Shown: positions 1 to 37,760, numbered from the stretch's first letter. The stretch: DNA of 37,760 bases from Jimgerdemannia flammicorona (GCA_003990765.1 RBNJ01000181.1:1-37760), one strand, 5' to 3'. Notes: a model not told the origin generated them from the sequence alone. Translations and numbers: made by a program.

Positions 1-37
1 CCTCCCCCCCTCCCCAAAAAAAATAAAAATAAAACAG

Positions 38-14420: not shown

Positions 14421-15514
14421 GTGAAGAGGGCTTACCGTCAACGTAACGACAACGTCCGCATGGAAGGATCTTTCATTGGGCGCACAAAGGATCTCGAAAA
14501 TTTGATGAAACTTCTCGAAGGTCCTGAACGTTATATCACCATCAAAGGATTCGGCGGGTTGGGCAAAACGTCGTTAGCACTTCAGGCTTTCAAACACTAC
14601 AACTCCAGCAGTGCCCTTGCGCTATCTCTCGCTGGAGTACCAAGATCAAGCCAAGTGATCCGGAAGATTGCATAGTTTTTCGCTATAGACACTAAAGATC
14701 TAAACGATCAGGACCAGCAATCTCAAGTTCAACAAAATTTGTATGGCGAGGAAAAAAATTTGCTCTATCTCGACAACATTGAAGAGTCAAACTAGGGATG
14801 GAAAGTAGAGAATCTGGGACGAAAGTAGAAGCAAGGACATTGTTAAATTTTTTTCACAGGATTACCAGACAACGTCAAAATTCTCGCAACCTCAAGAATC
14901 GCGTTGGGTTGGCCAAAAGAACATGTGTTCGATCTGGCTAGCTTGGAGCCACATGAAGGCATGCTGGTTTTTCAGCAATGGACCCCTCTGCGCTCGGAAG
15001 CGGGGGGATACAGATGACCACAGCCGAATGGAACTTAGCCGCGTTACCGATGGCCACCCATTGTCGCTTCGGCTTCTTGGCGGTATGGTATGTTCAACAA
15101 CAACGGGGAACCCATCCAAAAATTTGTCGACAAGGTCCGTGAACGGCTTAATGCTGCGGTGAATGAGCAATTCCTTTATGAGCGGCACGAAACGATAAGC
15201 GCTTGTATCAAGTACAGCTTTGATTATTTGGACGATACACTTCAGAAGTTCCTGGGTCAGTTGAGGGAATGGAATGTTCCATTTACATCAACCCTCATCA
15301 TCGGTGCGGCACGACCCTGCTACATCGCCTGTCGCAACCAATTTGCACAAACTTTGGCAAAGAAGCTGGCTAAACCGACGAAAATACGAGGTGGACCCAA
15401 TGCTCGGTGACTGGCGCCCCTACATTATCTCGAATGAAACTGAGTTTTATAGCCTGCATCCACGCCTACACGACTTCCTCAACGACCGGTTTGATAATGT
15501 TGAGGCTACTCTAC
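14421..15514 (+). pseudogene. Second NB-ARC/STAND NTPase module (same gene or an adjacent paralog), disabled and cut at 15515
   Basis: SFIGRTKDL, Walker A KGFGGLGKT, Walker B LLYLDNIEE, KILATSRIALGW, DGHPLSLRLLG, ISACIKYSFDYL, YSLHPRLHDF. In-frame TAG at 14673 and several frameshifts, one caused by a 5-bp GGTAT tandem duplication at 15082-15091. Confidence 0.8.
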
Positions 15515-15730: not shown

Positions 15731-18107
15731 TCTTTTCTCTGGTACAATTTAGTTATATAAACTTCTAACAATATTCTCAATATTATTTTTAGAGAAAAGA
15801 TAATAATAACATGGTAACTGATGAGTGATTTGAGGAGTATATAGGGTAGAATGGTTTTAGTATATTTAACTAGTAATATATGAGGAGAAGTCATAGCTTG
15901 GAGAGGAGTCTATTGGGTACTCTCTCTAGTAGATAAGGAGGTGAAAGAGGTGGGTCTAGCAGACAGAGATCTGGGAGAATGAGTTTTGCTGACAAGGTTA
16001 AGATAGAGCATTTAGTAACTGAATTGGAGAGTTGGCTGCAGAAAGATAAGAAGAAGAAGGAGGTTGTAGGATCTGGTAGAGAAATCTATAGTAGTAGTTG
16101 GAAAAAAAAAATACAAATGTAATAGCTAATAGTGAGGCTAGATAGAGGGGAAGAGGGGGGGCATGGTCTAGAGACCTAGCTAATAGTATAATGGACCTAG
16201 TAGTAATACTATTATTCAAGAAATTAGTATTCAAATTTACTATTATATTATACTTCTGGGGCTTAGTAATTATAGTTAAAATAGTTCTAAGACTTCTGGC
16301 TCAGAAGGTAAAAGGAGCAGTATCAGTAAAGTTCTTGAAGGGTCTAAAAAAAGTAGAGGTAAGCTTTGAGAAGAAGGAGTTGATATTGAGAGTATTGGAG
16401 AAGAGAGTGGTGATATATAAGAGAGGTGGTGATATTTATGGCTCAGTGCTTATACTGAGACTTCTAGATGATACAGCTAATAGTGGTGAACATACTTATA
16501 GTGAAAAAGAAGGAGATCAGAGGACTGATTATTGATATTATCAAAGAGTATAGAGATGTAGTAGATATTAGATTCCAGGTCTGAGAAGATACAGAATTCA
16601 GGACTAGAGATATAGATATTAGGATAAAGCTGGTAGGCAAGGAGAATACTGAGAAAGAAAGAATTGATCAGTAGTACTTAAGTGAGTACTAGTAGAGTAT
16701 AAGGTCTTGAGAGTGAAGAGAATACTAAAGGAGGAGGAGGACTTACTGGAGATATTAAAAGACTTGGCTGAAGTAGTAAAGAAGAGATAGCTATCCTAGA
16801 AGAAGTTCAAAGCTAAGATAGTGATAGAGATTGTGAATGGCAAGAGAGTACAACTAGATCAGGTAGCCTGGGAGAGAGTATAAGAGATACAGTATCAGAA
16901 AGATTTATTAATAAATCTGAGCAAGAGGGCAGTAGGAGAGAATACTACTAAAGAGTTAGATTGAGAGCTAGTGCTTGAGCAGAGGAGAAGAAAGTGGCTC
17001 TTACAGTAGTTCTGAGAGAGAATAGAGGCTCTAGGCAGAGTATAGTAGCTAGTACTTTTAAATAAATCAAATCAATTTAAATTGACACAAATTAGAGTTA
17101 ATTTGAATCAAATTGAATTAGGGATTTTTGTATTCAAATTGAATTTAAATCAAATTGAGGTCTAATTTGAATCAATTCAAATCAAATTGAGGGTCTAATT
17201 TAAATTAGTCAAATCAAATTAAATGTCAATTTGAGATTCTTGGTAACTTACTAATTACATTAGTTCTTTATTTGAAAGGTATATCATATATAAACATATA
17301 ATCAAAATTTACATATAACTGAAATTCACATCTAACTGAAATTCACACATAACTGATATATATTTTCAAAATTCTCACTCCTAGTCCTGGTCTCAGCCAT
17401 ATCTGGCCATAGTAGCAGCTATCCAGCAAGTATTATTATATGACCTCTTTCTCAGTAGAAGATCAGAGATCAATAGATTGAGTTATTGACAGATTTTGAC
17501 AAGAGTATGATATGGTTTTCCATATCTTCTACAATTATTGCAGCTTGTACAAGATTAATCTTTAGTTTTTAAAGGTGTAGCAGTAGTGGCTTGGGTGGTG
17601 GTGATAGTAGCTTGGGCTTGAGTGACAGCTTAGACAATAGCTTGGATAGCAGTTTAGACAGTAGCAGCAGCTTGAGCTTGTGCAGCAACAGCTTGGGCTA
17701 GGGTAGTGGCTTGGGCTTAGGTGATAGCTTAGACTTGGGTGGTAGCTTGGGTGATAGTGATAGTAGCTTCAGAGGTCTTAGGAGTAGAGGCTTTAGGGGT
17801 CTCAGGAGTGGAGACTTCAGGGGTAGCCTGAGAGGTGGCTTCAGGAGCTATTCTTGAGATGAATTGCTTGATTGCTTTTTCAATCTTCTTCTTCTTCTTC
17901 TTATATTCATCATCAGTCTTAGATTTATCATCATCCAACCAGATTATAATCTTGTTGATAGCATAGTTTATGTTCTCAAAGGCTCCAGAAAGATGATCAA
18001 TATAGAATTGAAGTTTTTATAAGATGAGGTATTTTTTGTTTTTTGTTTTTTGTTTTATTTTTTATTATTAAAGCCAGCTTATTTATATATATATTTTACC
18101 TATATAA

Positions 18108-18352
18108 TATTCAAAGCTCTCAGCTTATGCTTATTGCTCACAAGATTGCAGACTTATACTTATTGCAATATTCAAAGCTCTTGGCTTACACTTGTTATAA
18201 TATTCAAAGCTCTTGGCTTATACTTATTGCTTGTGAGATTGTAGCATATATTTGCTATAATATTTGAAGCTCTCAGCTTATACTTATTGCTCATGAGATT
18301 GCAGACTTATGGGCTGCAATATTCAAAGCTCTTAGCTTATACTTATTGCTTG
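18108..18352. repeat. Tandem repeat (5 units, ~40-60 bp) inside the hAT element
   Basis: ATT(C/T)(A/G)AAGCTCT..GCTTA recurs at ~18110, 18170, 18202, 18262 and 18321. Confidence 0.85.
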
Positions 18353-19592
18353 TAGGCTTATGGATTAGCAAGCTTATAAGTATAAGTATTTCAGATATAG
18401 TAACTAAGTAGATATAATATATATCCTTAAGCTTTAAATATATTCAAAATTTTATATATTATACTATTTATACTACTTATTATCTATCTCTAGTACTCCT
18501 GGGTAGATATAATGATATCTTACTCATCTCATTGAGACTGGAAATAATAGAAATCATATTCAAATATAACAATCAGATATGTATTCAGAAATTATATTTA
18601 GATATAGTATATCTATAAGTTCTGAGTCATACTTGTATAATATAATATCTAAGTATTATATTTATTTAGTATTTTGAAATTTAACTATATTTCAAGATTT
18701 GAGATTGGCTATTATTATTGGAATACTAGACTGATTGCTATGCCTTTAAACACATATATTCATGAATTGTTTCAGAGTCTAAAGTACCTCTTTTGGGCAT
18801 TACAAGATCTGTACTACTTGAAAAAATCCACTCAATTGGAGAACTTATTGCTGGGATAGCTAAATAGTCATATGCTATTTTTATTAGATTTTGGAAATCT
18901 CTACTATAGCTCTAATGTTTCTAATAAATTAATCAATTAGAAAAACTCAGTGTTTCAAAATAGACCTAATTTGAAAATGAAAATCTAACTTACTTATTAC
19001 TAAAATAATATATCAACTCCTTATTGAAATTTAATAATTTTACTTTTTAAATATACATCTACTTCCTACTCAGAATTTGTTGTCAGTTTTTGTCTTTTGT
19101 TGAAGAATATATATTGATTTAATTTAGCATTGATGTCATCTACTTCAATTGTAGTATCAGCATCATCTACTTCAAAATTTGTATAATAAACTGATCTAGA
19201 TAGAGGGATATAGTTTTTGTTATAGATTATACAAAGTGTGTTTTCAGCCTTTTCAATTCAAATGTCTTCCCAATTATAAGATGAATAATATTCTAGTTTA
19301 ATCCTGGGATCAAGAACTGGTTTTATTCTAAAAAAAAAAAAAAAAATTTGAAATAGATTTATAGTGACCAACTGATCAAGCAAATTTCGAATTTTGAAAT
19401 AGATATATACTGTCTTTAGCACTAAACAAATTTTGAATTACTTACTAGTACCAATATAATAAAGACTATCTGTTATTAAATAGTATATCTTCAACTTATC
19501 AATAGCTACTGTTATTGCCTAGTGAATAGTATCTAGCTCTTCTGTCTTTGCTATATATATTTAAATATCTTTGTCATAATTCTCCAATATAT

Positions 19593-21120
19593 TGTAATAG
19601 TGACCCCAGAATGATGATATCAGCACAGGAGACAGCCTTTCCTTGCAAGCCACCAGATCAGAGCACAAGAAGATCATATGGCATATAAAATGAGTAATGA
19701 TGACCAACTGTGAGTCATTGTGACTACAGTACAAGCATCCTGAAGAATATAAAAGAAGGATCAAGGAACTGCAGTAGCAGTAATCAACAAGACCCACCAA
19801 TCCCAAAATAGCTCAAAGACTTACCACAAACAAAATGTCTGCTGCCTGCCAAACCTCAAGGTCAAGGAACTATCAAGGTATCTCAGTTGAAGAAAGGATG
19901 TTCCAAGACATCAGAAGAGCCATGAGAACCTGCTCAAGAAGGACTCCTAGTGTTAACCTGGGTATTGTAGATCTCTATCACTTTATCCTCTACTGCTGTA
20001 AAATGGAAACAAGGATCACCATTGCTACTGAATACCTCCAAATGTGGCAGGAGTATAAAATAGAAAACCTCTTCTGCCGAGAGTTCCCACAGGCCAGTAC
20101 TCAAGAGCTACAAGATGCCACTCCCATAGATATACGCGAAACAAGGACAACTAAGAATATCTATCAGATCTTCAGATATGCACCATGGTTGATCCCCAAC
20201 TTGGAGTATGTTAGAGTCTCAGATTTCAGAGATCTGTCATCCTGCCACATTAATGCACTAGAAGCCAGAGTGGCTACAGAAGCCCAGTCCACTATCACCC
20301 TCAATAGTGATGAAGTAGAAGACTTCTGGTACCCCATCCTCCAAGACAACCCAGACCAATTCCTGCAAGGATTGATCTCAGTATTCCAAGGCCCAAGCAT
20401 CTAGGTTAGATCTCTCCAAGACCCCACATTTGTCTCCTATTTTGTGAAAGAGAATCTCATAGACTGGAGAGCTCCAGATCTTGTTCCCAATTTCCCCGCC
20501 ACCAAACATGATAATGTCATCAGTAATGATATCATCCTGTATAACATTGAAGCATACAAAAATAATGAATTTGCGGATCTCATCTCCTTTAGTAATGATG
20601 ATGATGATGATGAAGCCCCCATGATCCTGAACTTTCTGTTTTAAGTTCTTTATTACACCAAATAATATCAGCACTGGTATTTTGATGTAATACTAGATAA
20701 TACCAGCACTGGCATTCTGGGTGATGCAAAATTGTTCCAGCACCAGTATTCTGATGTGATACTGAATTATACCAGCATCCTGAACCTGTACAACCATCAG
20801 TGCCAACTCTGGAACTTAGTAGTTTTAGTTATTAAAATTTATATTTAGCTTTATATCTTAGCAACCATTGAATTATATTTTGTATAAATACCCCTCTTAT
20901 TTCCTCTGAAATAAAGTCAGTTCTGGTTTCACTTACATATACTTCCTTGCAAGCAATCTAAGAGATAACAAGACAGTTAAAGATAAGAAGTTTGAGGACT
21001 ATAAGACCTTGGGAAGGCACTCTAATAAGAACTTACTTATAACAAACTTGAGTTAGTCTAAGAGATATACCTTGAAGAAAATCTGGTGTATTTGAAGGAC
21101 TCAGTGACCACTATGTGACA
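19593..21120 (+). mobile_element. Solo-LTR-like element A (1528 bp) nested in the hAT transposase
   Basis: Ends TGTAAT...GTGACA; 4-bp TSD ATAT (19589-19592 / 21121-21124); GTATAAATACCC at ~20882 followed by AATAAA at 20910; second copy of the family starts at 33156. Confidence 0.85.
19835..20644 (+). pseudogene. LTR-internal ORF A (269 codons with one in-frame TAG at 20402; the first 189 aa are uninterrupted), function unknown
   Basis: ORFs 19835..20404 and 20444..20644 are in the same frame. A-rich leader cacaaacaaaATG, TATAAAAG at ~19748, acidic tail DDDDDE. Homologous to the ORFs in the other three LTRs. Confidence 0.75.
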
Positions 21121-21794
21121 ATATTCAGTAAAAAGTTATAAATCAGAATAGCTATATAAATTATTGTATATTTATACTAAGTTGTAAGATCTATTGCTTT
21201 TTGAAAGCTCTTTAAAACAGAAATGATATCTTTTAGTATATGCTAAGTATATTCATCTTCAATGATATATTTTTACAAATCTTTATCAGCTATAACTATT
21301 GAGGTTAAGGGCTATTAATAAAAATCAATTTATTAATAAATATAACATAATATGTATAATAATATAATATAATATAATATAATAATATAAAGCTTATCTC
21401 TGATAATTTCAAGACCCATTTAATTATAAAATATATTGAGTTTCACTGAGTCTTAACATCCAAAATAAGTTTTTTTAGATTGCTGATTCCAAAAGCTTTA
21501 CATTATGCTTTAAATTGCTCAAGATACTGTAGTGATAACTAGATCTTAATAATACTTATCTGGAGCCTTGAAGTTATTTCTCTATCATCATCAGCCTTCA
21601 TATAGACTAAAAAGGCCTGAGTGGCCAGATTAATGATATAAGTCAGATAGTAAACATATTGTATTAGCTGATAGTTGAGGTCAGTATAAAACTCCATTCC
21701 AATTGCTTAAAAAAATGTATTGTTGTTAGATGTATTATCTATTGTTATAGCTAATATCTAGAGTGAAAAATCAATAATTCAAAATATAAGATAA

Positions 21795-21955
21795 ACCTTT
21801 TTCAAAAATCCCAACTTTTTTAAAAATTCTAACCTTTTTTGAAAATCTCAATCTTTTTTGAAAATCCTGACCTTTTTTAAAAATCTTAGTTCTGACAATT
21901 TTTAAAAATCTTAACCTTTTTTTAAAAATCCTGACCTTTTTTAAAAATCTGACCT
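21795..21955. repeat. Tandem repeat of ~20-bp CCTTTTTT(A/G)AAAATC units (~7-8 copies) within the hAT transposase region, possibly intronic
   Basis: Read directly from the sequence. Confidence 0.8.
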
Positions 21956-23357
21956 AAAGACTTACTCTCTATATATCTTTGTCTATATACCAAAATCTTG
22001 AACATATCTTCCAAAGATATCAGCAAGATTTTCACCTGAATGAGATCCTGATAGCTTGATAAAATCAATCAACATGCAGTTGAGTTGCTAATTCTGATAG
22101 ATCCAATGTGCATTAATTCTAAAAAATATATATATATTTGGTGATATCTATATATCAATAGTGAAAGATATTTGATTTGGTATATTTTATTTTCAAATAA
22201 ATTAAATTGAAATAAGATTAATTCAAATAGACATTCAATGTGAAAATATTCAATATTAAAATATTAGATCTTACCTATAGCATAATTTTGATAGTATTAT
22301 AGTTTTGTTTAAAGATCAGTTTAATTTCATTTCATATAGTTCTAGCAGAAGGAATTATAATGTCTGATTTCAGAAGGCAAAAGAGATCTTTTAGCTCCAA
22401 ATTCTCAATAACTATAAAAGGCTAGCTATTACAGATTATCTAGTGAATAAGCTTTTCTTGAAATAATAGTATGGAGAATTTTGGCTATTTTGAATAATAT
22501 AAAGTAGTAATAAATTAATAAAAAAAAACCCAAAAAAAAAAAAGCAGACAAGTTATATAAAAACATACTTATAAAAAAAATAACTCTATTTCTCCTCTTC
22601 CTTGATGACTCTTATGATATTTGTTGAAATATACCCACAAATTCATTATTGAAGCACTAATAGTCTTATATAATACTTTACACTAGTTATATTTGATTCA
22701 GACATCTCTATTTTCTTTATAAACTCCTTCTAAATACCAGAGTATTCTTGTGCTTTTTATTTTTCTTTCTCAGACTGTGATGAGACTGCACTTATAACTA
22801 TACTTGTTGAAGCTATATCTAATATTGAGACTGTTATCATAGTATTCTCTATAGATAGTGGTGTAAAAAGTATATTGAACATACTTGATTACTTTGAGAG
22901 AGTATGTATTGTTGTAAGTTAAACTGCATATGTGAATTACTATATTTAGATTTAAATCAAATTGATTCAATTCAATTTGATTTAAATTGTGACTTAATTC
23001 AAATTGTGACTTGATTTAATTTAAATTGAATCAAATTGATACTTAATTTGAATTGAATTGAATTAAATTAATACTCAATTTGATTTGATTTATTGAGAGC
23101 ACTAGTAGTAGCTGAGGATATAGTGATGGTAGAGGAGGCTTATGTGTAGTACATATAATATACAAAAGAGAAGAGATCTGATGAGTTGCAGGATGTGCTG
23201 AAGGAGAACTAAGATGAACTTAAATTCTAAACCTCTTACTTAGGAAGATAGAATTAGAGTAACTGAATAAGATACTACAGGAGACTAATTAAAATATCTA
23301 CATATCTCTGAAGTAAGAGAACTTATATATCTTCTAAAAGATATTTCCTAAGCCCTT

Positions 23358-26300
23358 CACTAAAAAAAATTTATTGGTTCAGTTTTGGAATAAAATTATT
23401 TATAAATATTCTTTATTTAATAGATAGACAATAAATTGAGATATATATTTAAAACTTATTATAGTTATTCTTTTAACATTTCTCTATAATCTCATATAAT
23501 TTATTTTTTAAAATCTTATTTATTTTATCTTTTAAAAAAATAATAAAAAAACATTTTTTAAATATATAAATATATATAATATATTATTAATATACTGAAT
23601 TCAAATATTAAAGTAATAATATTTTATCCAAAGAAGGCTATTTAAGTATACTTTTAACTCATAATAAATTATAATTTATTTATTAAATAGATTATTGAAG
23701 ATATCTTTCTCTGGTATAATTCAGATTATACAAACTTTTAACAATACTTTTGATATCATTTTTGAAGAAAAGGTGATAATAATATGATAACTAATAAGTG
23801 TTCTGAGGAGCATATGGGGCAGAGCAGCTCCAGTGCATTTGACTGGCAGTATGTGGAGAGGAGTTATGGATTGGGGGGGAGTCTGTTAAATACTCTTGCT
23901 AGTAAATAAGAAGGTAAACAAGGGGGGACCAGCAGGCAGAGATCTAGGAGAATGAGCTTTGCTAACAAGGTCAGAATAAGGAGAAGGAGTAGGCTATAGA
24001 GCCTAATATGGAAGCCCATAGTGACAGTAGTGGTAGGACTGGGGGAGTAGAGGCTAGGGAGAGTGGAACTGCTGATAGAGGGGAGACTGCTAATCTGGAA
24101 AAAAATCTAGATATAATGGCTGATGGTGAGACTAGACTAGAGAGAAACACAAGGCCTGGAGACCTGGCTAATAGTATAATGGGTTTAGTAATAATATTAT
24201 TACTCAAGAAGTTAATATCTGAATTCACTATTGCATTGTACTTCTAAGACTTAGTAGTTATAATAAAAATGGTTCTAGGTCTTCTGGCTCAAGAGGTGAA
24301 AGGAGTAGCTTTGGTGAAGTTTTTAAAGGGACTAGAAAGAGTAGAGGTGGGCTTTGAGGAGGAGGAGTTGATATTGGAAGTATTGAAGAAAGGAGTAGTA
24401 GTAGGAGAGGTAGTAATTTCTATAGCTCAGTATCTATACTAGGACCCCAGAGTGATACAACTGGTGGTGGTAAATATATCTACAGTGAAGAAGGAAGTGG
24501 CCAGAGAGCTGATTATGGATATTATTAAGAAGTATAGTAATGTGGTAGATGTTGGTTTCTGAGTCTGAGAAGAGACAGAATTTCAGACTAGTAATATAAA
24601 TATTCAGATTAGATTAGTAGACAAAGAGAATAATGAGAAAGAACAGGATTAACTGGTAATACTGAAGTGAGAATCAGTGGAGTATAAGGTCTTGAGGGTG
24701 AAGGGGACACCAGAAGAGAAAAAAGACTTACTAGAGATATTGAAGGATCTGGCTAGAGCTATAGAGAAGAAGAGGCTAGCCTAGAGAGAGTTTAAGGCTA
24801 GGATGGTAGTTGAAATAGTGAATAGCAGAAGAGTGCAACTAGATAAGACTGCATGGGAGAGGGCATAAGGGAGATAATATCAGAAGGACCTGTTGGTAAA
24901 TCTGGGAGAGAGAGTAGAGGACAATGTTACTATAGTTAGTAATAGATCAAGAACTAGTGTTTAGATAGAAGAAAAGAGGAGAACTCCCACAGAGGCCCTG
25001 GAGGAGGGAGAAAGCTCTAAGCAGAGTACAGTAGCTGAAGATATAATAATAATAGAGGAGGTCCAAGTACAATATGGGGTGCTCATAGGAGAAGAGGGGA
25101 CTGATGAGCTATAGGATATACTGAAGGAAGACTGGGATGAGTCAGTGAGGATGAATGCAGAAAGGGGTCTGAGGGCAGGGGGGCAGGAGGTGGCCCTAAG
25201 TATCAATAAGGCTATAGGAGAGGAGAAGTGACTATAGAAGACATTAATGAATATTGTAACAGATAAGTTGAGTAAGATGGATTTTAGAGTGATTAGTGAG
25301 CAATACTGGGGTGAAATCCTGCAAAGAGAGGAGATAGTACAGAAGTTTATAATGAACTATTAGTAGGTCTGTTGGAGGTAGAGAAATATAAGATAGATGA
25401 CACCAGAAAGATAGTACTTCTAACCATTGTAAATGAGTGGGTAGCATATCTATAGAGACCTAGGAAGGGGTTGAAGAAGTGGCAAGTGGTATATAAGGAC
25501 TACTGATCTGATATGGAGGCAGTAGATAATACAGACTGTTGGGAGATCTTAGAAGTACTGGATACTCAGCAGGGAGAGGCAGATGAGCTTAAGGCTAAGT
25601 GAATGTTGTTGGCAATATAGTAAGTATAGAATTGTAGAATAGGTACATACTCTCTAAACATTATTCAATATAAATAGTATAACTAGAATCTTTTTTTTAA
25701 ATATCAATAGTTTGAGAGATATGATGAGGTATCAGAATATCTTCAGCTAGTTGAAGGCTTTGGATGTAGATCTGTTCTTATTGTAGGATATAGGCTATAA
25801 TACTAGCTTAGATATGTAGGATTGGATGAGAGAATGGAGAGGTGTGGTAGTATGGTAGAATTGGGTGGACATTCTGGTTAGGAAGAGTAAGAGGGATATT
25901 GTAGACATTGGACATTAGGGGAACAGAGTGGTATAGAGGAGACTGGGCTGGAACTTCTTGACTATTGGGTCATATTATTGTCTAGTAGAAAGGGAGAAGT
26001 ATATAGAGTAGATAAGGGGACTAAAAGATGCAGAGATTATAGTAGCTGAGAGAATTGACTATTTGGGGGCAACTTTAACATAATATGTGATAGACTACTG
26101 GACAGGACAGATAGAGGGAGGGAGATGATAGGTAAGAGTGGAGAGATAGAAGACTGGAAGAAGATTGAGAGATTGAGCTAACTAGTAGATACAGGGCAAC
26201 TTGGATAAGGAGATTATTGTATCTATACTCACTAGATAGTAGGGCTGGGATTGAGAATTGACTAGATATTAACTACTGAGTATTGGGAAGCAGATATCTG

Positions 26301-29300
26301 GAGTACAATTGAGACAGTCTAGTGCTCTTGGTCTGATCACTGGGGTTTGCTGGACTGTGGGAGGTTTGGGAGAAGTAGAGAGGGGTCTGGATATTAGTAC
26401 CTAAATACTTTATTGCAGAGAGATCACACTTTATGGAATAAATGGGTAGTGGATATTGGTGCTAGAAATATTGGCTGGAGGGTATAGGGGTTGGAGATTG
26501 GAGATTATTAGTAGTATTTAAAATCTGATACATAGTAGTACTGAGGCAAGACTGAGAGGAGAAGAGGGGCCCAGAGGAAGAGTTATATAAGATGGGCCTC
26601 ACAGAGGTTGGAAAGGTTACTGGAGAGATGGACTGGATCTTTGGATAGTAGCAAGGAAGGGAATTAGAGTACTCAATAGATCTGGCAGGAGGTGGAAGAA
26701 TTGAAGGAACTACTTAGATAGGAGGAGAAATTGCAAATGAAGGAAATGGTAGTATAGTTATAATAACAGAGCTTAGAGGAGGAGAAGTGACCTACAAAGT
26801 TTCTGTCAAGGCTGCTTCAGGCAAAGAGGATGAGACAGCATAGGAAGGAGTATTGGATGAGGTAGATAATATGGTGATCAGAATACCAGGAATCTTGGGC
26901 CTACTGCAGTCTCACTAGGGGTAGTTATGGAGTGAGAAGAAGGGTAGTAAAGATTCACTTGACATTGAATAGCAGCTGGAGGATTGGCACTCAGACTCAG
27001 TAGTGGGCCTAGGTGAACTTGGAGTCCCAGTATAGAGAGAAGAGGTCTGTCAGGTTTTGGCAATGATAAGTCTGGAGATAGCCCCAGGAGAAGATAAATT
27101 GTCTTGAGATTTTTGGAAGCAGATGACCAGTATAGAGGTTGTACTAGAGGAGATAATGTGGATGTATGATGAAGTTATTAGCTTGGGGACCTAGATTGGG
27201 AAGCAATACTTGGGGCTTATAACTCTATTATATAAGAATAAGAAGAGGAGGAAGGATTGAAAGAACTGGAGGTCAATCATGCTTTTAGATATAAATCACA
27301 AGTTGGTGATGAAGATTTTGATAGCCAGGTTGTAAGGGGTGGTTCAGTAGATATTAGGAGCAGAGCAGTAAGACTTTGTCAGAGGTTATTTAATATGAGA
27401 TGAGATAGCTTAGATCTATAGTATTATTAAAGGAGCTTATGCTACTGAGGTTGATGGTTGACTAGTCTTTCTAGACCAAGAGAAGACTTATAATAGAGTC
27501 AGGCATATATAGCTAGAGAGAGTACTGAAGTGAATGAGAGTCTCTCTAGAGTTTTAGAGATTATTTATTAGTTTATTTAGAGGGAAGTCAGATGGTCATT
27601 ATAGTGAATAGATATAGGAGTGAGTCATTTCTCTTAGGCAGAGGAGTACTACAGAGAGATCTACTGTTGCTGATCCTTTATACTCTCTCACTAGAGCCAT
27701 TGTTAGACAGAATAGAGTATAGGGTGAGAGAGTTGAATATTCTAAGAGTGAACTAGAAGGTGGGGGCCTTTGTTGATAATATGGTAATTGAGCTAAGCTC
27801 TATAAGAAAGAGATATGATTGAGACAGTTGTCCCAGCAGGAGAAGCAGTCTATTATCTGGAGATTTATTTTTCAGTATATAGTTCCCAACTGCTTCAGAA
27901 TTGGTGAGAATAGTAGCTGTTTGAGTGGGGGGATGCTCTCTTGAGGTAGGGTAGCTGATATATCTCTCTGGTAGAAAGAGTGATAGTGTTGAATATATAT
28001 TGGTACCTAAGCTATGATATTTGGAATATTACTTGGACTTTCCAGTATAGGTAGTCAAGAGACTGCTGAAGATGACCAGATCATAGATATAGATAGAGTA
28101 GTGAAGTCAGATTAGTTAGAAGGTATTGACATTACTAGTAGATAGAGGAGGGCTGGGCCTAGTGGACTTTATTAAGTACCTATACTGCTTGAGAGTATAG
28201 TGGCTGAAGCAAACAAGTGAATTGAGGGGTCAAGAGTGGGTACCCCTTATGTAAAGGATGTGGGAGATTTGTTTCTCTCTCTAAGGCATAACTGGTGACC
28301 TACTTTCTCTAGTAGTACTGGAGGGGAGCAGGAAGATATACTATAGAGAATTCTGATGAAGAGTAGTTGATGATACTTATTGAATAGAACTCAGATAGTA
28401 GAGTGATGAAGAAGAGGAAGAATGGCCCAGATGTAAAGATAAGACTATCTACTATTAGGAAGTATACTAGTAGATGAGTTTTATTTAGAGAATAGTATAG
28501 AATATCTATAGGAGCATGGGAGAGATTTATGGCCTAAGACCTGACAAGAGATGGGAATTAGCAAAGAGTGGAATTGAAACAGCATTTAGTCTTAGAGCAA
28601 TCAGATAGCAAAGTAGCTTCTCTTTAAGTTCTAGATAGTATGGTAGAGACTCTTGTAGTACAATGTGTTGCTGAATTACTAGTCAGAATATTTGGTAGAA
28701 AGGAGTATCTTAGAGTGTGAGAAGTGTTTTAATATTAGACAAGAGGGTGAAGTAGTACAGACCTCTGAGTATTGACTGGGGGAATACAAGGTTTTGGAAG
28801 ACTTTTGGAGGGCAATCAAGGATTGGCTAGAATTGTAATCTTTTGGAGAAATAGAGGGTGAGAGATGGGATGATCTCTGATAGAGGCTTATAGAAGAGAT
28901 TGGAGATAAGTAATTAACTTTTAGATGGGCTCTGGCCATTTAGATTGGGCTTGCTGAATATTGGCTTTATATATTTAAAGATGTTCAGTATTTGATGCTT
29001 AAGATATAAGTTATAAGATGGGAGTAATTATTGCAATAGTTGATAGTGGAGATAGAGATCTGAAGGGAGAATCTATAGGAGACTTGTGGAATATATTTAT
29101 GGGAAGAGTAGGGAGGGTTGAAGTTATTGAGGGGTTAGTGACTCTCTGAAAAGGTGGAGAGGGAGAGAGAGAGAAGATTCTATATAGAATTGAGTGAAGG
29201 GAATATTCATATCTTTGTATTAATATAACATAGATTGAATAATAATAAAGTAAGAGTCTAAGTGACTATAAAAAAAAAAAAAATTAAATAAATTAGTTAT

Positions 29301-30193
29301 AGTTTGAGATTATATATAAATTATTATAGTATTAAATATATATATAAGAATAACAGGAGAATAAATAGATACTGTATAGAATAGACTAATATTAGATGAC
29401 TGGAAGTATATAATATCTACTAATAAATAAAAATCAATTATTTTGAATTCTATATATGATATATATCTTTTCCTATTATCTTTAAATTTTAGTTAACTAA
29501 TGTTATATAACTTATATTAAGTATATTTTATATCTTTGATTCAATTTTATAGTATCTTAGATATTTGAGATAATAATAATATACTGTTTAAGTATTTGTA
29601 GTTAGTTTAAAGTAGTTTTGCAGCATTTTTAATATAGAAAAAGTCATATAATATCAATTGACTATAAAATTCAAAGATGATAGAAAAAGATATATATTAT
29701 ATATAGAATCCAAAATAATTAATTTTTGTTTTATTAGAAGATACTATATACTTCCAGTTACCTAATATCAGTCTATTTTATATAGTATCTATTTATTCTC
29801 CTATTATTCTAGTATATATTTAATAATATAATAATTTATATAATCTTAAACTATAACTAATCTATTTAATAAATAAATTATAATTTATTATAAGTAGAAA
29901 GTATACTTAAATAGCCTTCTTTAGACAAAATATCATTACTTTAATATTTTAATTCAGTATATTAATAATATATTATATATATTTATATATATTTAAAAAA
30001 AGGGTTTTTATTATTTTTTTAAAAGATAAAATAAATAAGATTTTAAAAAATAAATTCTATGAGATTATAGAGAAATGTTAAAAGAATAACTATAATAAGT
30101 TTTAAATATATATCTCAATTTATTGTCTATTTATTAAATAAAGAATATGTATAAATAATTTTATTTCAAAACTGAACTAATAATTTTTTTTTT
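23358..30193. repeat. AT-rich foldback/palindromic element: left arm 23358-23694 plus 29283-29520 (split by LINE copy 2), right arm ~29640-30193
   Basis: 23371-23693 is the reverse complement of ~29860-30185, and 29293-29512 is the reverse complement of ~29645-29860. With the LINE removed the arms are ~560 bp and the spacer ~120 bp. Confidence 0.8.
23695..29282 (+). mobile_element. Full-length L1/Tx1-like non-LTR retrotransposon (LINE copy 2, ~5.6 kb), inactivated by many point mutations
   Basis: Poly-A at 29270-29283; 13-bp TSD ATTAAATAGATTA (23682-23694) / ATTAAATAAATTA (29283-29295). AP-endonuclease remnants GGNFN (~26064), RID.I (~26253), WSDH (~26330). RT remnants APGED (~27080), ITLLYK..KNWRSI.LL, VFLDQEKTYNRV (~27465), RGVLQRDLLLLILY..LEP and AFVDNM (~27767). 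Zinc-knuckle-like remnant near 25420-25460. Confidence 0.92.
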
Positions 30194-31397
30194 TAAGAAT
30201 TTTTTTTAAAGATAAAATAGAAATTTAAAAATAATAAATTTAATATTTTTAAATACCTCTTATATAAAACTATAATATATTATAACATAAAATATATTTA
30301 TATAAAGTATTTTTATTTAAATAATTAAAATATATAATTTAATAAAATATTAATTTAGTTTTAGAATATACTGTATAAGCTATTATATAATATTACTAAT
30401 GATCCTTCTTACTTTGAGACTATTTTTAGAGATATCTATATATAGTGTAGCATTGGGTTTGTATCTCTAGTTGCTTCTGGCACAGCTCAATGTGCCACTT
30501 GGTGAAGTGTACGATATATAACTGAATGCGTTGGTGACATTCGTGGGTCGATGGTCATGTGATTGGGTCATTCGAAATGTGCGATAATTGATAATAGCGG
30601 GAGATCGTTCGACGATGGTGGCTCAATTATTTAGTGGATAAGAGCAGCGGTTATGCTGGCTAAGTTTCCTGGTAGCGATTAACTTGGTGGCGAACTTGAA
30701 TTTATGTGGCGACGACAGGCTTGCTCTTTATGCAGTCAATTAAAGTGGTCCATAGCATAGTAGGTCAGGAAAATGGAGGTTGATGGCTCGCTCGTCCATC
30801 TTGACTTGTTAACTTGAAAGGTTCCTGGCGGTCATTTGGGCCTTTGGCAGCAGGTCGGTCTTTAGCGGTCTAGTATCCTTTGGCTGGGTATCCTTGGGTT
30901 TCTGGGTCTTGAATCTCGAATGGCAGTCAAATGGCAGCGGTCCGAATGGCGGTCTGAAATGCACGGTCCGAATGGTGGTCTGAATGCGCGGTGGTCGTAG
31001 TCTTGAATCCTTGGCTGGGTCTCGGGTCTCGAATGACAGTCAAATGGTGGCAGTCGGGTAACATTTTCTTTCCGTGGCAAGAGAAAATTCTTTAACTCAA
31101 ACTTCCAAGCGATCCATTGCTCTAGGTTGTTATCTTGTTCTCAGAATTTATCCGGTCTCTTGGAGGCAGTGGTTTCTTTGTAATTCTTTTTACTTTTAAA
31201 CACAAGCTGACTGAGGCTTTATTCACTCTAAGAATATGGGTTATTTATACAAGTTTTGCTAGCTATGGGGGGGGGGGGTGTGACTAAGGCTAAGATATAC
31301 TATGTTGTGGTGAACTTATGCTATTGGCTTGCATGATGCAAGGTGCAGGCTATTGTTTACTATGGATTGGGTTGTAGGGGATAGCAACACTAGATTC

Positions 31398-31640
31398 GGA
31401 TGAGTAGATAGGAATGCTGATTGTTGCCAGAAATGGTTGTGGAGGGTGGCAACACTGAATTCGAACCTGCTGACAAAATGCTGAAAATGGTGGTACTGGG
31501 TAGCAACACTGGAAATGGATGAGCTGACATGATACGATGATTGTTGCCGGAAACAGTTGTGAAGGGTGGTAATGCTGAATTCAGACCTACTGACAAAAGT
31601 GCTGAAAATAGTGGTACTGGGTAGCAATGCTGGAAATGGA
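31398..31640. repeat. Two direct copies of a ~120-bp unit in LTR C, between its ORF and the TATA box
   Basis: GGATGAG...TGATTGTTGCC.GAAA..GTTGTG.AGGGTGG.AA..CTGAATTC...CTGACAAAA.TGCTGAAAAT.GTGGTACTGGGTAGCAA..CTGGAAATGG occurs twice. Confidence 0.85.
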
Positions 31641-31863
31641 CTTGCTGATGAAAGCTGGGTTCTCATGGCTGATGGGCAGTACTCTAGAGGGAATAGTACC
31701 CTTCGTCCGCGGTGGGCAAATCTTGCTGGGTTGTGATTTCTTCTTCATCATATCTCTCCTCAAAGGGGGGAAGTGCTGGCCAAGAGGTGAGGGGGTAGAA
31801 AAGTGGCCAGTCATCTTCAACAACATTTTCCAATCCCTGAACTGCTTGAATGCGGACAGAGGA

Positions 31864-32670
31864 CTAGTAGACTCTCTGTTGCTCCTCTTCTTCTTCTGAA
31901 GACTCGTCAGTTTCAGTGTTAGAGGGGGTTTCTTCAGGGGCAGGGTCTTGGAGTTCTTGGGCCTCCTCTTCAAAGACAGGAACTTCTTGGGCTTCTTCTT
32001 GATTCGGTTCCCAAATGATGAGGTGTGAATTGTGGCTGACAAGGTGGTGGGTGGTTGGGGTAGCTCCAATGGGTGCTTCTATGGTAATGGGCGGTCCTTC
32101 AAATATCTCCATAAGACTCATTAGGTGACCTTGATGGTTGTCTCGGAGTGGGGTGGTGTGGAAACCTGGCTGAGTAGGTTCAGTTTGTTGGCTTCCCATG
32201 GTGATGCAGTTGCTGCCAATAGCATTGACTACTTCAGATTCTATCCAGTCAGCATCTTTGGTTGAAAGGCAGGAGAGGCTGCCAGCTGTTACTCCTTGCA
32301 AGTGTGCTATAGTCCAGGGAATATGGCAGAAGATTTGGTGAACACGGAGGGCTCTCTTGATTAGCCAGCTGGTGGTTAACATTTCGGCAATGAGGTCTTC
32401 CCGGTTGTCTTCTTGAGTCTCATTGCAAAGGTGGTGTCCGATTTCATAGTCATGCCAGAGGGTCATTCATTCGGTAGTGTCTTTGAGCTATTGGGTCATT
32501 ATATACTAGTAGTTGATGAAGTGTCCAAGGTCCTCGGTATAGAAGTTCAAGTATTCGGAAGTATCTGGGCACCAGATGGCCTTCTTGATAGCTTCAAAGA
32601 TCAGGGTCTTTGGGCCAGGCAAAGGGGTAGAGTGGCGGGAGGTCTGGTTGGTTCGACAAATAGGAGGCAT
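31864..32670 (-). pseudogene. LTR-internal ORF C (268 codons, three in-frame stops at ~32508, ~32490 and ~32469)
   Basis: ORFs 32506..32745 and 31864..32466 share a frame. FINY*YIMTQ*LKDTTE*MTLWHDYEIG aligns without gaps to FILYCCKMETRITIATEYLQMWQEYKIE of ORF A. Acidic C-terminus DESSEEEEEQ. Confidence 0.75.
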
Positions 32671-33155
32671 TGTGTGGTGGGTACTTGGTTCTTTGGTGCT
32701 GATCCCTGAGGTGGAGTATGGTTCCTTAAATAATGTGGTCTTCATTTTGGCTCAGATCATCTTGTCTTCTTTTGGAATGATCACCTAATGGGTCAGGCTG
32801 TCTATTTGATTGTTATGCCATTATGTTGTCTGATATTAGCAGTCACTGGTACTCCATTATCAATTGTGTATGTCACAATAGTATAAATAACTTCTATAGA
32901 TTAGATTATATAAAGGCTAGTATTATAGTTATATAGTACTTGAGTTCTTTGAAGATATCTTTTTATACATAGTTTCTTTTATTTAAATAATACTTCTTTT
33001 TTAAGTAGAGTTTAAATTAGAGCAGAGGTTTTAATAACATTTTTAATAAATCTTCTCTAATAAGATACTAATATTAAAAATAATAGAACTTCTTTTGAAG
33101 CCTTGAGTATAGACCAGTTATTGATCTTTTCTATTTTTTTTTTAGATCTATATAT

Positions 33156-34560
33156 TGTAATAGTGACCTTAGAATAGTGATATCATTACAAGAAACAGTC
33201 TTTCCTTACAAGCCACCAGATCAGAGTATAAGAAGATTATATGGTATGACTCACCCAGACTATAAGATGAGTAATAATGACTAACTATAAGTTATCATAA
33301 CTATAAGATAGATATCTTAAGAAATATAAAAGAAGGACTAAGGAACTACAATAGCAGCAACTCAAACAAGACTTACAAAATCCAAAAATACCTCAAAGAC
33401 TCACTATAAATAAAATGCTTGCTGTCTGCCAAACCTCAAGGTCCAGAAACTACTAAGAATTCTCAGTCTAAGAAAGAATATTCCAAGATATCAGAAGAGC
33501 CATGAGGATCTGTATAAGAAGAACTCCTAGTCTCAATCTGGGTATAGATGACTCTTATCACTTTATCCTTAACTGTTGTGAAATAGAAATAAGGATCACT
33601 ATTACTACTAAATATCTCTGAATATAGCAGAAATATAAAATAGAAATCTCCTCTACTGAGAATTTTCTCAGACCAGTTCCTAAGAAATACAAGATACCAT
33701 CTCTATAGATATATGTAAATTAAGAGTAGTCAAAAAGATCCATCAGGTCTTTAGGTATATATCTTGGTCAATCTCTAACTTAGAATATACCAGAGTCTCA
33801 GACTTCAAGGAATTGTCAGCCTACTATATAGATACACTAGAGGCTATGGTGGCCACAGAAGTCCAATCTACTATCACTCTAAAAAGTGATGAAATAGGAG
33901 AGTTCTGAAATTCCATTCTTAAGGATAATCCTGATCAATTTCTACAAGAATTAATCTTGATTTTCTAAGGCTCTAGTATCTAGGTTAGACCCCCTCAAGA
34001 TTCCACCTTTGTCTTATACTTTGTGGAGAAGAACCTCATAGATTAGAGAGCCCCTGATCTCTTTGCTCTCTCTACTACTGCTGAATGTAATGATATTATT
34101 GACAATGACATCATCCCACTAATTGATAAGATGCATAAAGTATATAAAATATATAACATATATGAAATGAATGAAACATTCACCAATCTTATTTCCTTTA
34201 AAGATATCCTAATCTCTAGCAATAATAAAGATAAAGTCTTCAGAGTTCTGAACATTTTGCTCTGAATTCTTTATATAACTGTTTATCTGAACATCTAAAT
34301 CTTCTGGCATTCTTTTCTTATACAACTGAAATCTACCAGTATCCTGAACTTATACAACCATTTGTACAGATACTTGAATTTGTACTTACAACTAAAGTTT
34401 TCTATATTTCAGTATCTTATTTATTTGGTTATTAGAATTTATATTTAGCTTTATATCTTAGCAACTATTGAATTATATTTTGTATAAATATCCCTTTCAT
34501 TTTTTTAAAAATAAAGTCAGTTCTCTCAGTTCACTTACACTCAATTCTACATAAGCAATC
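33156..34560 (+). mobile_element. LTR element B, second copy of family A, more mutated and interrupted at 34561 by a Gypsy-like element
   Basis: Same start TGTAATAGTGACC preceded by ATAT; colinear with 19593-20958 up to AAGCAATC. Confidence 0.88.
33415..34265 (+). pseudogene. LTR-internal ORF B, a degenerate copy of ORF A with many stops
   Basis: MLAVCQTSRSRNY*..IFQDIRRAMR..RRTPSLNLGIDDSYHFILNCC matches ORF A. The stops arise from CAA>TAA and TGG>TAG/TGA changes. Confidence 0.8.
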
Positions 34561-34849
34561 TGTAAGTGCACAACCTCCAAGCCACTGAAATTATACATCA
34601 CCCTCTGAACAAGCCACCGAAATCGCATGTGACCTCTGAACAAATCTGGAAATCACCTGCTTGATCACGAAGCTGAGTTAAACCAAAGTCACAGCATACA
34701 AAGCTGAGTCAATATGAAGTCACGGAATACAAGATTTATACAAATGGAATCTTACCAATCAGGACCAAATATATATATACCGAGCACCGAGACACGTCGA
34801 ATCAGAGAACCAAAACAAACAAATAACTACAACTTCCAAACACACAAAC

Positions 34850-35946
34850 ATGACCACTGAGATCTACAACTATATCTGCGCTGACATTTGGAATGCCATT
34901 GTCAACCGAGCCACACCCCCTCTGCCCCTCATGAATATCCATAGCCTGGCACCCCTCTACTTCGTGGAAGCCTGATGGAATGCTCTGAACATACTTAGCA
35001 AGATCCACTGAATTGGACAAATCTCAAGCTACTACCAGATTGGCTGCCTCCTGAAAGACATGGTCAAACACCACCATGATACAGACATTACCCAGATGTC
35101 TCAATACCAGAAGCTCATCGCCCGCAAACATCAAGAACTCTACTATGAGTACAGCACCATTATTCTCTGCCTCCGAGTTACTACCAGTGAAATGGTTGCT
35201 ACCCTGTCCTATGGCCAAATTGATGACATGATACAAGAACTCAACCAGAAGTACCTCGAGTATGTCGAAACTACAGACAGAACCTTCCCATACCCCAATG
35301 ATCATATCCTGCAAATGCCCCAAGTTGGATATGCCATAAAGGACATCTATGATATAATCCACTTTGATGAAGATGAAGCAGAAGACAATGATCCCTCTGA
35401 CGCCAACATGACCTCTAGCCAAGGATCTCTGCCAACCCTGATAACTCTGCCAACCTTACTGATGAACTTACAACAGTTCATAACTACATACAAGACTTAT
35501 TGGGACAATGACCACTAGTATGAATACCAACCTACATTCATCCCCGATTACTTCAACTACAATGAAGAGACCGGAGAACACAACCTATACCTCCAGACAA
35601 CCCTTGAGATTGAACCAACCACTCCACCACCTGAGTACGAGCGACATGAACCACAGCCACCAGCTTACTACAATCCTGCAACCCATAGTGCTGTAATCTA
35701 TAGAAGGTACGCAGACAGCGAATCCAATGAAAGCAAAGACAATATACCCATTCTTCATCCACCAACACCTTATCCAGCCTATGAGACAGACAATGCTATC
35801 CTGTGGAATGGAGATGAAGTCCCAATGTATTACTACCTCAGTGAATAAGGAGAGTATTCTGCGAACCACTCTTCCTAGATGACTACTTCATCAGAGATAA
35901 TGCAATCAATGGTGATGTCATCGAAGACTACCCAGACAGTATCTAA
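34850..35946 (+). pseudogene. LTR-internal ORF D (~330-365 codons; TGA at 34973 and 35009, TAG at 35516, TAA at ~35846; 3' end uncertain)
   Basis: ATG 34850 (cacacaaacATG) is in frame with ORF 35060..35518. ICADIWNAI, SYYQIGCLL and ARKHQELY..YSTIILCLRVTTSEMVATLS correspond to the conserved blocks of ORFs A and C. Confidence 0.7.
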
Positions 35947-36625
35947 ACCCATAAATAGCCTAGCAGTCATATTATAGTTAAATTAGCATTGTACAACATG
36001 ACTGTGAACTGACTCAGCAGTCAGACAATCTCTTGATATGTCAGATCACACTTGTACTACATAACTGCATTCCAACTCAGCAAGGCACTTAGTGCTACAT
36101 CCATATCTAGTATAGTCCAGATAGCCCCTCACTAGTATAAATACCCCCTCTCCCAGATCTCAGAATCTCAGACTCGAATACACAAGAACATTCCTGAATA
36201 CTTCCCCACAATACCCCTTCATACAAATACTCCTAGTATAGTAATATCATGAATAGCAAATAAACCTATTCCATAACCCACAAACCACTCTTAAGTAAAT
36301 CTGCTCCCTGTTAGATCCTACTCCTAACCCCATCACGAAATTTCCTAATTGGGTATTGTCTGCAGTGATATGCCAATTCAACTAAGCTGGTCTTAGTTTC
36401 TTGAACTTCCTGAAATATGGAAAATCCTGAACATCCAGAACTAGTCCAAAAAAGGACTTTGGTTGAGACGTCAACCCGATCTTGAAATCAATAAGTGTAG
36501 AGGACATATTCTATACGAAATTGATCTTGAGCATAAGAAAACGGTCTTCTAGAACATCTAGAATATCCAGAAAACCTTTCCAGAACTACATAACAGTTAC
36601 CCTAAAAAGTAACCCTCTTACAACT

Positions 36626-36637
36626 TGGTAGCAGTGG
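36626..36637 (+). promoter_or_regulatory. Primer-binding site, probably for initiator tRNA-Met
   Basis: TGGTAGCAG(TGG) just after the LTR end, complementary to the ...CUGCUACCA 3' end common in eukaryotic tRNAiMet. Confidence 0.7.
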
Positions 36638-36869
36638 TTTACAATCTAATTCCACTTCAAGATGCTTCCTCACTCCACTACAAACCCCTCTGAGAATTCC
36701 TACAAGTTGGTATAAAGCCCAACCTCTGAACTGGAATTGATCCTGAACCATCTGATAATCTGGAGAGAATTGAACCTGATGTACAAGGACAATTTGACCT
36801 CCACACCTACAATAAGTGGGATAAACTTCATTCAAAGAAAGAAGTACTCTGGTTAAACCAGCAAATAGA

Positions 36870-37760
36870 TGAAACTCTATTCACCGAACTTCTTGTACTA
36901 CACCCAGCAAGTCAAGATGAAGAAGGTCTTATTGAAGCCTTCTTTACTCTTCTCAATAAGAGTTTTGTCAGCTCCACAAATCTGAGTGACCTAGGACAAC
37001 CAGCAGCAGTCTTTCTAGCCTTAGTTCCTCATGAAGCCCAAGCCTCTGTAGCCAAGTGGCTCAACTCTACTGACTTTCACCACACCAGGACCAAGACTGC
37101 CTTATACTACCGATTCCAGAACAGCAAGGCCCACCATATCCTCAAAGAAGAAGCAAGAGAAACCCTTCACCAACTATCTGACCCCGAACCTGAAGTAGGC
37201 CCTACTATGGCCCTACCTGAATCTGAAACCAATACCAAACCTGAACTTGACTTTGAATTAAGTCCATCTGAAATCAGATATACAACTGATTCTGTCTACT
37301 TTGACGCCGAGCAAACCCAATTATATAGGGACCAAACTGAAGAAGAGGAGGAGTATCTCAGTGAATTCGATCCCAGACATACCACTGAAGGAGAAGTACC
37401 TCCATCAGGACAGAATACACCTATACACAACAAACAGTTATCTATCAAGCCCTTACTCCAGATCCACAACTACTACTCCAGCAACTTACACAGACCCAAA
37501 GAACCCCATCACACTCTGCACCAGTACCTCAAGTAGTATCAGTAATACTACTACCAGCAGTCCAACTGTCTCCAGTAAACAACATGGTGAACCAACAGAT
37601 TCTAGACCTCATAGCCCAAGTAGCTATAATGGCAGCAACCATTACTGCCTTAGCTGAACAGACCCAACCTACCAAAAATCTGAGCCTACCTACCTTCAAT
37701 GGTACTGCACAAGAAGTCCAAAGCTTCATTAGTATAGTTGACACCAACTTCGAAGCCAAT
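36870..37760 (+). pseudogene. gag: Degenerate gag region of element D (start approximate)
   Basis: Located downstream of the primer-binding site; C/A-rich coding-like sequence with stops; P-x-F-x-G...FI capsid-type motif at the window end. Confidence 0.55.

Follow-up and report, generated by a model that had tools for sequence, protein, structure and literature searches.

To our knowledge, the long terminal repeats (LTRs) of retrotransposons count as control sequence without coding content, and accessory genes that overlap an LTR are regarded as a speciality of retroviruses. In mouse mammary tumour virus (MMTV), U3 exceeds 1 kb and accommodates the whole open reading frame (ORF) of the superantigen gene sag, which is inherited through the 3' U3, and R is very short. 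Because the ORF lies inside U3, sag is present in both LTRs. The nef gene of the human and simian immunodeficiency viruses (HIV/SIV) overlaps U3, and the bel genes of foamy viruses reach into it. Among the latter, tas/bel1 has an internal promoter and shares its 3' end with the genomic RNA; its product is an activator that binds DNA and contains an acidic activation region. Here we report on a stretch of 37,760 nucleotides from the fungus Jimgerdemannia flammicorona (GCA_003990765.1 RBNJ01000181.1:1-37760), referred to as the window at its full length, in which four long repeat units, A, B, C and D, each hold one sense-strand ORF for a related protein (the LTR protein). These units are probably LTRs from a single lineage of LTR retrotransposons that has split into three diverged families, each LTR with a complete small gene for a previously undescribed protein of about 270 to 360 amino acids.

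Like MMTV sag, the ORFs found here would be complete within a proposed U3 of more than 1 kb that is followed by a very short R. Unlike sag, with which they share no sequence or Pfam relation, they belong to an LTR retrotransposon of a probably fungal host, have a putative TATA box of their own in the LTR, and are conserved in three families whose DNA is otherwise unrelated. The resemblance to tas/bel1 and nef is that of an accessory gene at the 3' end extending into U3; here, however, the LTR contains the entire gene together with its presumed promoter, and no homology was found. A Pfam search with 12 family members (E<=1) gave no homology to Sag, Nef or Tas, and no viral fold matched.

Additional ORFs are also described for retrotransposons of plants and fungi. 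ORF0 of the rice elements Retrosat2, RIRE3 and RIRE8 is located upstream of gag-pol in the internal region (PMC3485330). ORF0 and similar ORFs of plant Ty3/gypsy elements resemble the gene of A to D as lineage-specific extra ORFs, in the unusually long LTRs of their elements, and in diverging faster than pol (PMC3485330). The placement is different from that of ORF0, since the ORF of D ends at 35946, before the end of the LTR at 36622 and the primer-binding site (PBS) at 36626. The element BcGypsy1/Boty of Botrytis cinerea carries an additional ORF, brtn, which the methods of the source do not describe as located in the LTR (PMC8365987). Both are extra ORFs other than gag or pol, brtn in a fungal Gypsy element. 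A literature search for retrotransposon ORFs in, within or encoded in an LTR found no paper, with subscription journals mostly not covered, and broader searches turned up extra ORFs outside LTRs only.

A protein family common to the four units

A family hidden Markov model (HMM) searched against the six-frame translation of the window matched exactly four copies and no others. The matches in A (19853-20638, i-E 3e-90) and C (31816-32670 on the minus strand, i-E 1.6e-91) are strong, the copy in B is distributed over two frames (33442-33642 and 33642-34259), and the match in D (34847-35230) is weak with an i-E of 0.13. Units A and B are copies of the same repeat and 72.9% identical at the DNA level. 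Comparisons of A/B, C and D with each other found no DNA similarity at E<=0.01 with a word size of 7. At the protein level, the A family aligns to C with a BLASTP E-value of 1e-17 and 28% identity across 140 amino acids. BLASTP of D against A or C was not significant. The alignment of D to the first profile, built from A and C alone, was marginal (hhalign, P=0.033); with added subfamilies in the profile an E-value of 2.3e-5 was reached over 120 collinear columns. The score of this alignment, 43.6, compares to a maximum of 21.5 among 200 column shuffles (mean 12.5, standard deviation 2.5) and to 13.1 for the reversed alignment. As a control, P0012, an unrelated ORF of the window, gave E=0.6 against the family profile. 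Furthermore, the relative P0018 matched P0011, which represents the N-terminal part of the D family, by BLASTP with E=0.003.

Since the three unit families share no DNA similarity, it is the protein that is conserved, and its presence in all three indicates constraint at the protein level. A first-pass annotation of the window had claimed that the ORFs are homologous in spite of dissimilar DNA and that the protein was conserved across diverged families, and had named a non-significant profile alignment of A, C and D as a reason to abandon this view. The alignment turned out to be significant and to exceed both the shuffled and the reversed controls; hence, the homology stands. Every peptide block quoted in that annotation was recovered in the unit and frame to which it had been assigned, with one sense-strand ORF in each unit. 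Pfam, PDB sequence and fold searches linked the proteins neither to gag or env nor to any family of host genes, a further outcome that the annotation had named as contrary to its view. There is very little doubt that the LTR proteins constitute a real and constrained family.

The family is narrow, orphan and previously undescribed. When 1.84 billion representative proteins were searched with the family profile, no more than 11 matched. Intact relatives, which fall into several subfamilies, are P0002 (271 aa), P0006 (325 aa), P0014 (342 aa), P0018 (286 aa) and the ORF of L001 (291 aa). L001 is a locus of 1535 bp and was the only one found in a scan of metagenome contigs; scans of viral contigs and of genome contigs with two queries, one of them P0006, gave no loci. 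P0014 and a further relative, P0025, come from longer contigs of 4.8 kb and 19.4 kb, respectively. The clusters of 10 family proteins were inspected through 23 of their members: 9 were named, always as 'hypothetical protein', and none carried a functional name. No related cluster was found in the Atlas for P0002 or P0012.

Stops and frameshifts in the four ORFs (Table 1) were counted by reading the window translations against intact homologues. In C the stops are located at arginine or glutamine codons of the intact relative P0006, which fits a C-to-T decay. A and B differ by 276 transitions versus 79 transversions, and the C/T differences are most frequent in CpA context (71), followed by CpT (44) and CpC (39). 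The observed/expected ratio of CpG is 0.00-0.08 in A, B and a repeat resembling a long interspersed nuclear element (LINE), compared to 1.07 in the genes of the window. The decay of the repeats looks like repeat-induced point mutation: it is dominated by transitions, and CpG is nearly eliminated in the repeats and normal in the genes. Such a signature does not point to an early-diverging fungus, an origin for which the analysis gave no support.

The family protein begins with a short basic N-terminus, which leads into a conserved domain of about 135 residues; a central motif comes next, and the tail is acidic and poorly conserved. Its N-terminus is arginine-rich (MP..R..S.SR), the central conserved motif reads NPILQDNPDQFLQGL..F.GP.I in the A family, and the C-terminal part is disordered, with the tail ending in hydrophobic/acidic motifs. 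AlphaFold modelled residues 1-165 of the L001 protein as an all-helical structure of seven helices (mean pLDDT 85.2, pTM 0.76). In Pfam searches with the four ORFs and 12 family members (E<=1) there was no family match except for four scattered single-member hits, a sequence profile search of the PDB gave nothing below E 0.7, and Foldseek found no match at E<=0.001 in the PDB (two models) or BFVD. The best Z-scores of a wide VIA fold search were 3.9 for the first and 4.4 for the second model, which is not significant; all values were below 5, a level common for helical models in this search. All of the best structural neighbours align to residues 71-157, namely SopB (Z 4.4, rmsd 4.3, 77 residues aligned), VirB (4.0), P1 ParB (3.6), KorB (3.2 and 3.0) and Spo0J (3.1), and a similar set was obtained with the first model. 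The model of this segment thus resembles the helix-turn-helix (HTH) domains of ParB, SopB, KorB and VirB, its recurrent best neighbours, and stands apart from the ParB/SopB domains in that no Z value reaches 5 and neither Foldseek nor the PDB sequence search provided a match. We treat the predicted ParB-like HTH similarity as no more than a lead. Transcriptional activators combine a DNA-binding domain with an acidic tail behind it, and we would tentatively favour a DNA-binding regulator as the function of the protein, an assignment that we nevertheless regard as doubtful.

Terminal structure and signals of the units

The units A, B, C and D are probably true LTRs. The short inverted termini expected of LTRs (5'-TG...CA-3') are present as TGT and ACA in A, C and D, and B starts with TGT. 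Duplications in the size range of LTR target sites (4-6 bp) were found on both sides of A (ATAT) and C (ATAG), weak as evidence in AT-rich flanks; they fit solo LTRs. For B and D the far end is located outside the window. Unit B follows A as far as ...AAGCAATC, and the next base run is the TGT of D. This comparison of B to its paralogue A fixes the 5' end of D. At the other end of D, the exact 9-mer TGGTAGCAG, presumably complementary to initiator tRNA-Met at its 3' end, is located 3 nt after the unit and occurs only once in the 37.8-kb window. Neither long terminal inverted repeats nor internal short LTRs were found inside the units. A and C are probably solo LTRs, B an LTR split by the insertion of element D, and D the 5' LTR of a longer element that leaves the window, its 3' LTR being located beyond the window end.

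Two other arrangements were considered and rejected. A and B cannot be paired as the two LTRs of one element, as A is not followed by a PBS and B is not preceded by a polypurine tract, and the pairing is also disfavoured by the interval between them, which holds other repeats and no pol. An internal structure like that of a terminal-repeat retrotransposon in miniature (TRIM) was rejected because terminal direct repeats were absent inside the units and L001, except for one 33-nt match.

All four units contain a TATA box, TATAAATA(C/A)CCC, on the sense strand 3' of the ORF (second TATA box in Table 1). With one mismatch allowed, the window contains four matches to TATAAATAMCCC, one in each unit, compared to 0.56 expected occurrences and none of 100 shuffles reaching four, a statistic weakened by the fact that the pattern was chosen after the units had been inspected. 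In A, B and C the box is followed after 26-27 nt by AATAAA and then by an initiator-like TCAGT(T/C) and a GT-rich run. A TATA box and a poly(A) signal are thus present inside the repeat in all four units. From this core to the 3' end of the unit there are 208 bp in A, about 770 bp in C and about 460 bp in D, and the ORF, at unit positions 243-1052 (A), 208-1194 (C) and 290-1386 (D), is located wholly upstream of the core. A layout of TATA box, AATAAA and GT-rich sequence is described for LTRs in general in a survey (PMC3601003). The termini, the duplications at A and C, the PBS-like site after D and the TATA/AATAAA core near the 3' ends agree with the view of the first-pass annotation that the units are of LTR type and that D is followed by a PBS.

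An upstream TATA box, TATAAAAG, precedes the ATG by 80-87 nt in A, B and L001; at the matching place C and D have TATA-like AT runs only. A and L001 agree at 93% of the 29 nt that surround the ATG, in contrast to only about 45% identity of their proteins. Since the second TATA box with AATAAA and the initiator-like TCAGT lies downstream, the ORF may be located in U3 like that of MMTV sag; judged from these sequence motifs, we see about even chances for a placement in U3 with a promoter of its own. In the presumed U3 of C, two to three tandem copies of a repeat of about 120 nt are located at 31370-31648 on the minus strand, after the ORF and ahead of the second TATA box. They could be an enhancer-like repeat.

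Table 1. Positions of the repeat units, their ORFs and their putative signals in the window
Feature	Position	Strand	Description
Unit A	19593..21120	+	Solo-LTR-like copy of family A/B, 1528 bp, TGT...ACA ends, ATAT at both flanks
Unit B	33156..34560	+	Second copy of family A/B, starts with TGT, 3' end truncated by insertion of D
Unit C	30446..32877	-	Solo-LTR-like copy of second family, 2432 bp, TGT...ACA ends, ATAG at both flanks
Unit D	34561..36622	+	Probable 5' LTR of third family, 2062 bp, TGT...ACA ends
LTR-protein ORF of A	19835..20644	+	About 270 codons, one premature stop at 20402-20404, no frameshift
LTR-protein ORF of B	33415..34259	+	Heavily decayed, about 9 stops, frameshift near 33642
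LTR-protein ORF of C	31684..32670	-	4 in-frame stops, no frameshift; intact relative P0006 (325 aa)
LTR-protein ORF of D	34850..35946	+	Distant member, 4 stops, one frameshift; relatives P0011 (N-terminal part) and P0010 (C-terminal part)
Upstream TATA box, TATAAAAG	19748..19755	+	87 nt before the ATG of the ORF in A; motif at matching place in B (about 33325) and L001 (296)
Second TATA box of A, TATAAATACCCC	20883..20894	+	AATAAA at 20910-20915, then TCAGTT and GT-rich run; proposed U3/R boundary
Second TATA box of B, TATAAATATCCC (1 mismatch)	34483..34494	+	AATAAA at 34510-34515
Second TATA box of C, TATAAATAACCC	31238..31249	-	AATAAA 26 nt downstream at 31218-31223, then TCAGTC and GT-rich run
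Second TATA box of D, TATAAATACCCC	36136..36147	+	AATAAA only at 36259-36264
PBS-like site, TGGTAGCAGTGG	36626..36637	+	3 nt past the final ACA of D; contains exact TGGTAGCAG
Internal region of element D	36730..37760	+	268-aa ORF without recognisable family, then a second frame leaving the window end

Under the favoured explanation, in which A to D are gene-bearing LTRs, the gene would occupy a U3 of 1.3-1.65 kb, to be followed by the core promoter of the element, a short R and U5. Its own TATA box would be located 60-90 nt 5' of the ATG, and the gene would end before the main core promoter, TATAAATA(C/A)CCC with the initiator-like TCAGT, and use the AATAAA of the LTR. As the poly(A) signal would be that of the LTR, both LTRs of an element and also solo LTRs could give rise to the mRNA, so that each LTR, solo LTRs included, would be a self-contained transcription unit. 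An mRNA from the 3' LTR would have the same end site as the genomic RNA, and the gene would be recopied to both ends in each round of reverse transcription. The protein may act in the nucleus as a nucleic-acid-binding regulator of the LTR of its own family, either as a transactivator or as an anti-silencing factor.

Alternative explanations

The main alternative to the U3 model is that the ORF is located in a very long R. The mRNA of the ORF and the genomic RNA would then both start at the upstream TATA box, TATAAATA...AATAAA would be a two-part fungal poly(A) signal, and the ORF would be the first cistron before PBS and gag. An efficiency element followed by a positioning element is the layout of yeast 3'-end signals. 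The distance of just 26-27 nt from the second TATA box to AATAAA in A, B and C fits this layout, and TATAAAAG is a perfect TATA box at a regular distance (80-87 nt) from the ATG. A TATA motif may also double as a poly(A) signal, a use that the LTR survey notes (PMC3601003). However, an upstream ORF of 270-360 codons would keep scanning ribosomes from gag, and the poly(A) site of the 5' LTR would have to be bypassed across more than 1 kb. The exact 12-mer with the initiator-like TCAGT about 36 nt downstream resembles a core promoter, and the AATAAA of D is 123 nt off. We consider a long R rather improbable.

Alternatively, the units could be no LTRs but small self-standing mobile units or non-autonomous derivatives of retroelements with one gene, the PBS-like site being coincidental or part of a neighbouring element. 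This would agree with the isolated positions of A and C with duplications at both sides, and with a window in which no pair of units encloses an internal region and no pol is present. It would also agree with the sequence downstream of D, of which about 1.1 kb lies inside the window: the first-pass annotation had placed gag there, a reading left unsupported in every search. The 268-aa ORF is unrelated to the LTR protein according to profile comparison, and the last 27 codons of the window may resemble the start of a Ty3/gypsy gag. On the other hand, TGT...ACA ends are typical of integrase substrates, the sole exact PBS-like 9-mer in 37.8 kb is found 3 nt past the ACA of D, and a core of TATA box, AATAAA and GT-rich sequence is present near the 3' end of each unit. 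Searches of the units likewise turned up neither short LTRs inside them nor long terminal inverted repeats. Units other than LTRs thus appear unlikely.

Even if the units are LTRs, the gene might have a different origin or role. Capture of genes by LTR elements is known, and the protein bears no retroelement signature; a host gene or gene fragment could have been taken up, and the conservation would then be that of the host gene instead of indicating a role in the element. This is very improbable in view of only 11 hits among 1.84 billion representatives and the lack of any functional name among the 23 cluster members. Moreover, with respect to both the ends of the LTR and the second TATA box, the position and orientation of the gene are constant in three families that are otherwise unrelated in DNA, which argues for a long retention inside LTRs. 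If the protein were not a transcriptional regulator but served in structure or replication, for example as an RNA chaperone or a divergent protein of Gag type, this would be compatible with the arginine-rich N-terminus and with the HTH reading, which is weak because the fold matches are not significant. We hold it for quite unlikely, as Pfam gave no match to Retrotrans_gag, a capsid domain or a zinc knuckle in the LTR ORFs or their relatives and no capsid is among the fold neighbours. In addition, the gene precedes the PBS, forms part of the repeat and occurs in solo LTRs, and the acidic disordered tail is unlike a nucleocapsid.

A number of observations weigh against gene-bearing LTRs with a regulator in U3. 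No direct-repeat pair of units around PBS, gag, pol and a polypurine tract is present in the window, and no PBS or polypurine tract was found adjoining A and B. Pfam detected no gag, protease, reverse transcriptase (RT) or integrase domain in 150 stop-to-stop ORFs of at least 45 amino acids from 15.3 kb onward, and the region 36730-37760 gave no match in Pfam, the PDB sequence search or the Atlas. The 4-bp duplications are short and lie within AT-rich DNA. With its AATAAA 123 nt past the TATA box, D departs from A, B and C, and the combination of TATA box and AATAAA could alternatively be a two-part poly(A) signal that would place the ORF in a long R. All four copies in the window are dead, carrying stops or frameshifts, and the intact relatives are located on short JGI and ENA metagenome contigs on which the surrounding context is not visible. 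No RNA for the window was found among sequencing runs, in which only small shares (<=0.13) were seen, in soil-metagenome runs and two runs of one organism. The proposed function is derived from fold similarities below significance (best Z 4.4).

Surroundings of the units and significance

The window starts with GC-rich genes, and an AT-rich island of decayed repeats extends from about 16 kb on. A UBR1-type N-recognin gene is represented by several exon-like ORF pieces with UBR box, ClpS, winged-helix and PRT6_C matches in Pfam. This gene and a CHAT-plus-AAA (NLR-like) gene directly adjoin the repeat island (spans 1-7000 and 11284-15400 for the two). A C-terminal dimerisation domain fragment of a hAT transposase is located at 18741-18911 on the minus strand (Pfam E=7e-8). 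Apart from it, Pfam gave nothing relevant for the 150 ORFs, the four LTR ORFs and the 12 family members. A dead hAT element may have been the insertion target of unit A. The hAT fragment is preceded by an AT-rich spacer in which a unit of about 60 nt is repeated five times in tandem (18091-18362).

A decayed element extends from 23706 to 29300 on the plus strand. Its read-through translation appears LINE-like by eye, with endonuclease motifs followed by RT motifs, and these are the only RT-like remains noticed in the window by such inspection. Pfam at E<=10 confirmed no domain in the read-through translations of this element (about 23.7-29.3 kb). Its first 1.3 kb recur at 15734-17050 (+) with 72% identity, and its sense strand contains 10% C, 29% G and no CpG. 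On both sides of the element, at 23362-23694 and 29858-30192, lies a 335-bp inverted repeat with 94.6% identity, and an imperfect palindrome of 600 bp is found at 29283-29870. The sequence TAGTAGCAG, which differs by one transition from the PBS-like TGGTAGCAG, is present twice (10535-10543 and 17410-17418). These copies could stem from other dead elements, as primer-binding sites that have mutated, or may have arisen by chance.

The most far-reaching form of our explanation would be a fungal LTR lineage in which every U3 contains a gene complete from promoter to poly(A) signal and encoding a new DNA-binding, activator-like protein, with solo LTRs as dispersed expression units for a factor acting in trans on the whole family, kept through the divergence of at least three families. 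It would amount to an accessory gene of retroviral style, like sag or tas, in a simple retrotransposon. We put this forward tentatively, as a possibility that is on the whole unlikely. The LTR-protein family can be tested directly, because this orphan at the fold level has a confidently predicted domain. If a conserved protein gene is indeed kept inside the LTRs of several diverged families, pipelines for LTR annotation throw away a real gene family, and solo LTRs could stay genetically active once the element is lost. Simple retrotransposons could then evolve regulatory genes as complex retroviruses do, and a gene of this type would be a candidate route by which elements promote their own expression under strong repeat-directed mutation and silencing.

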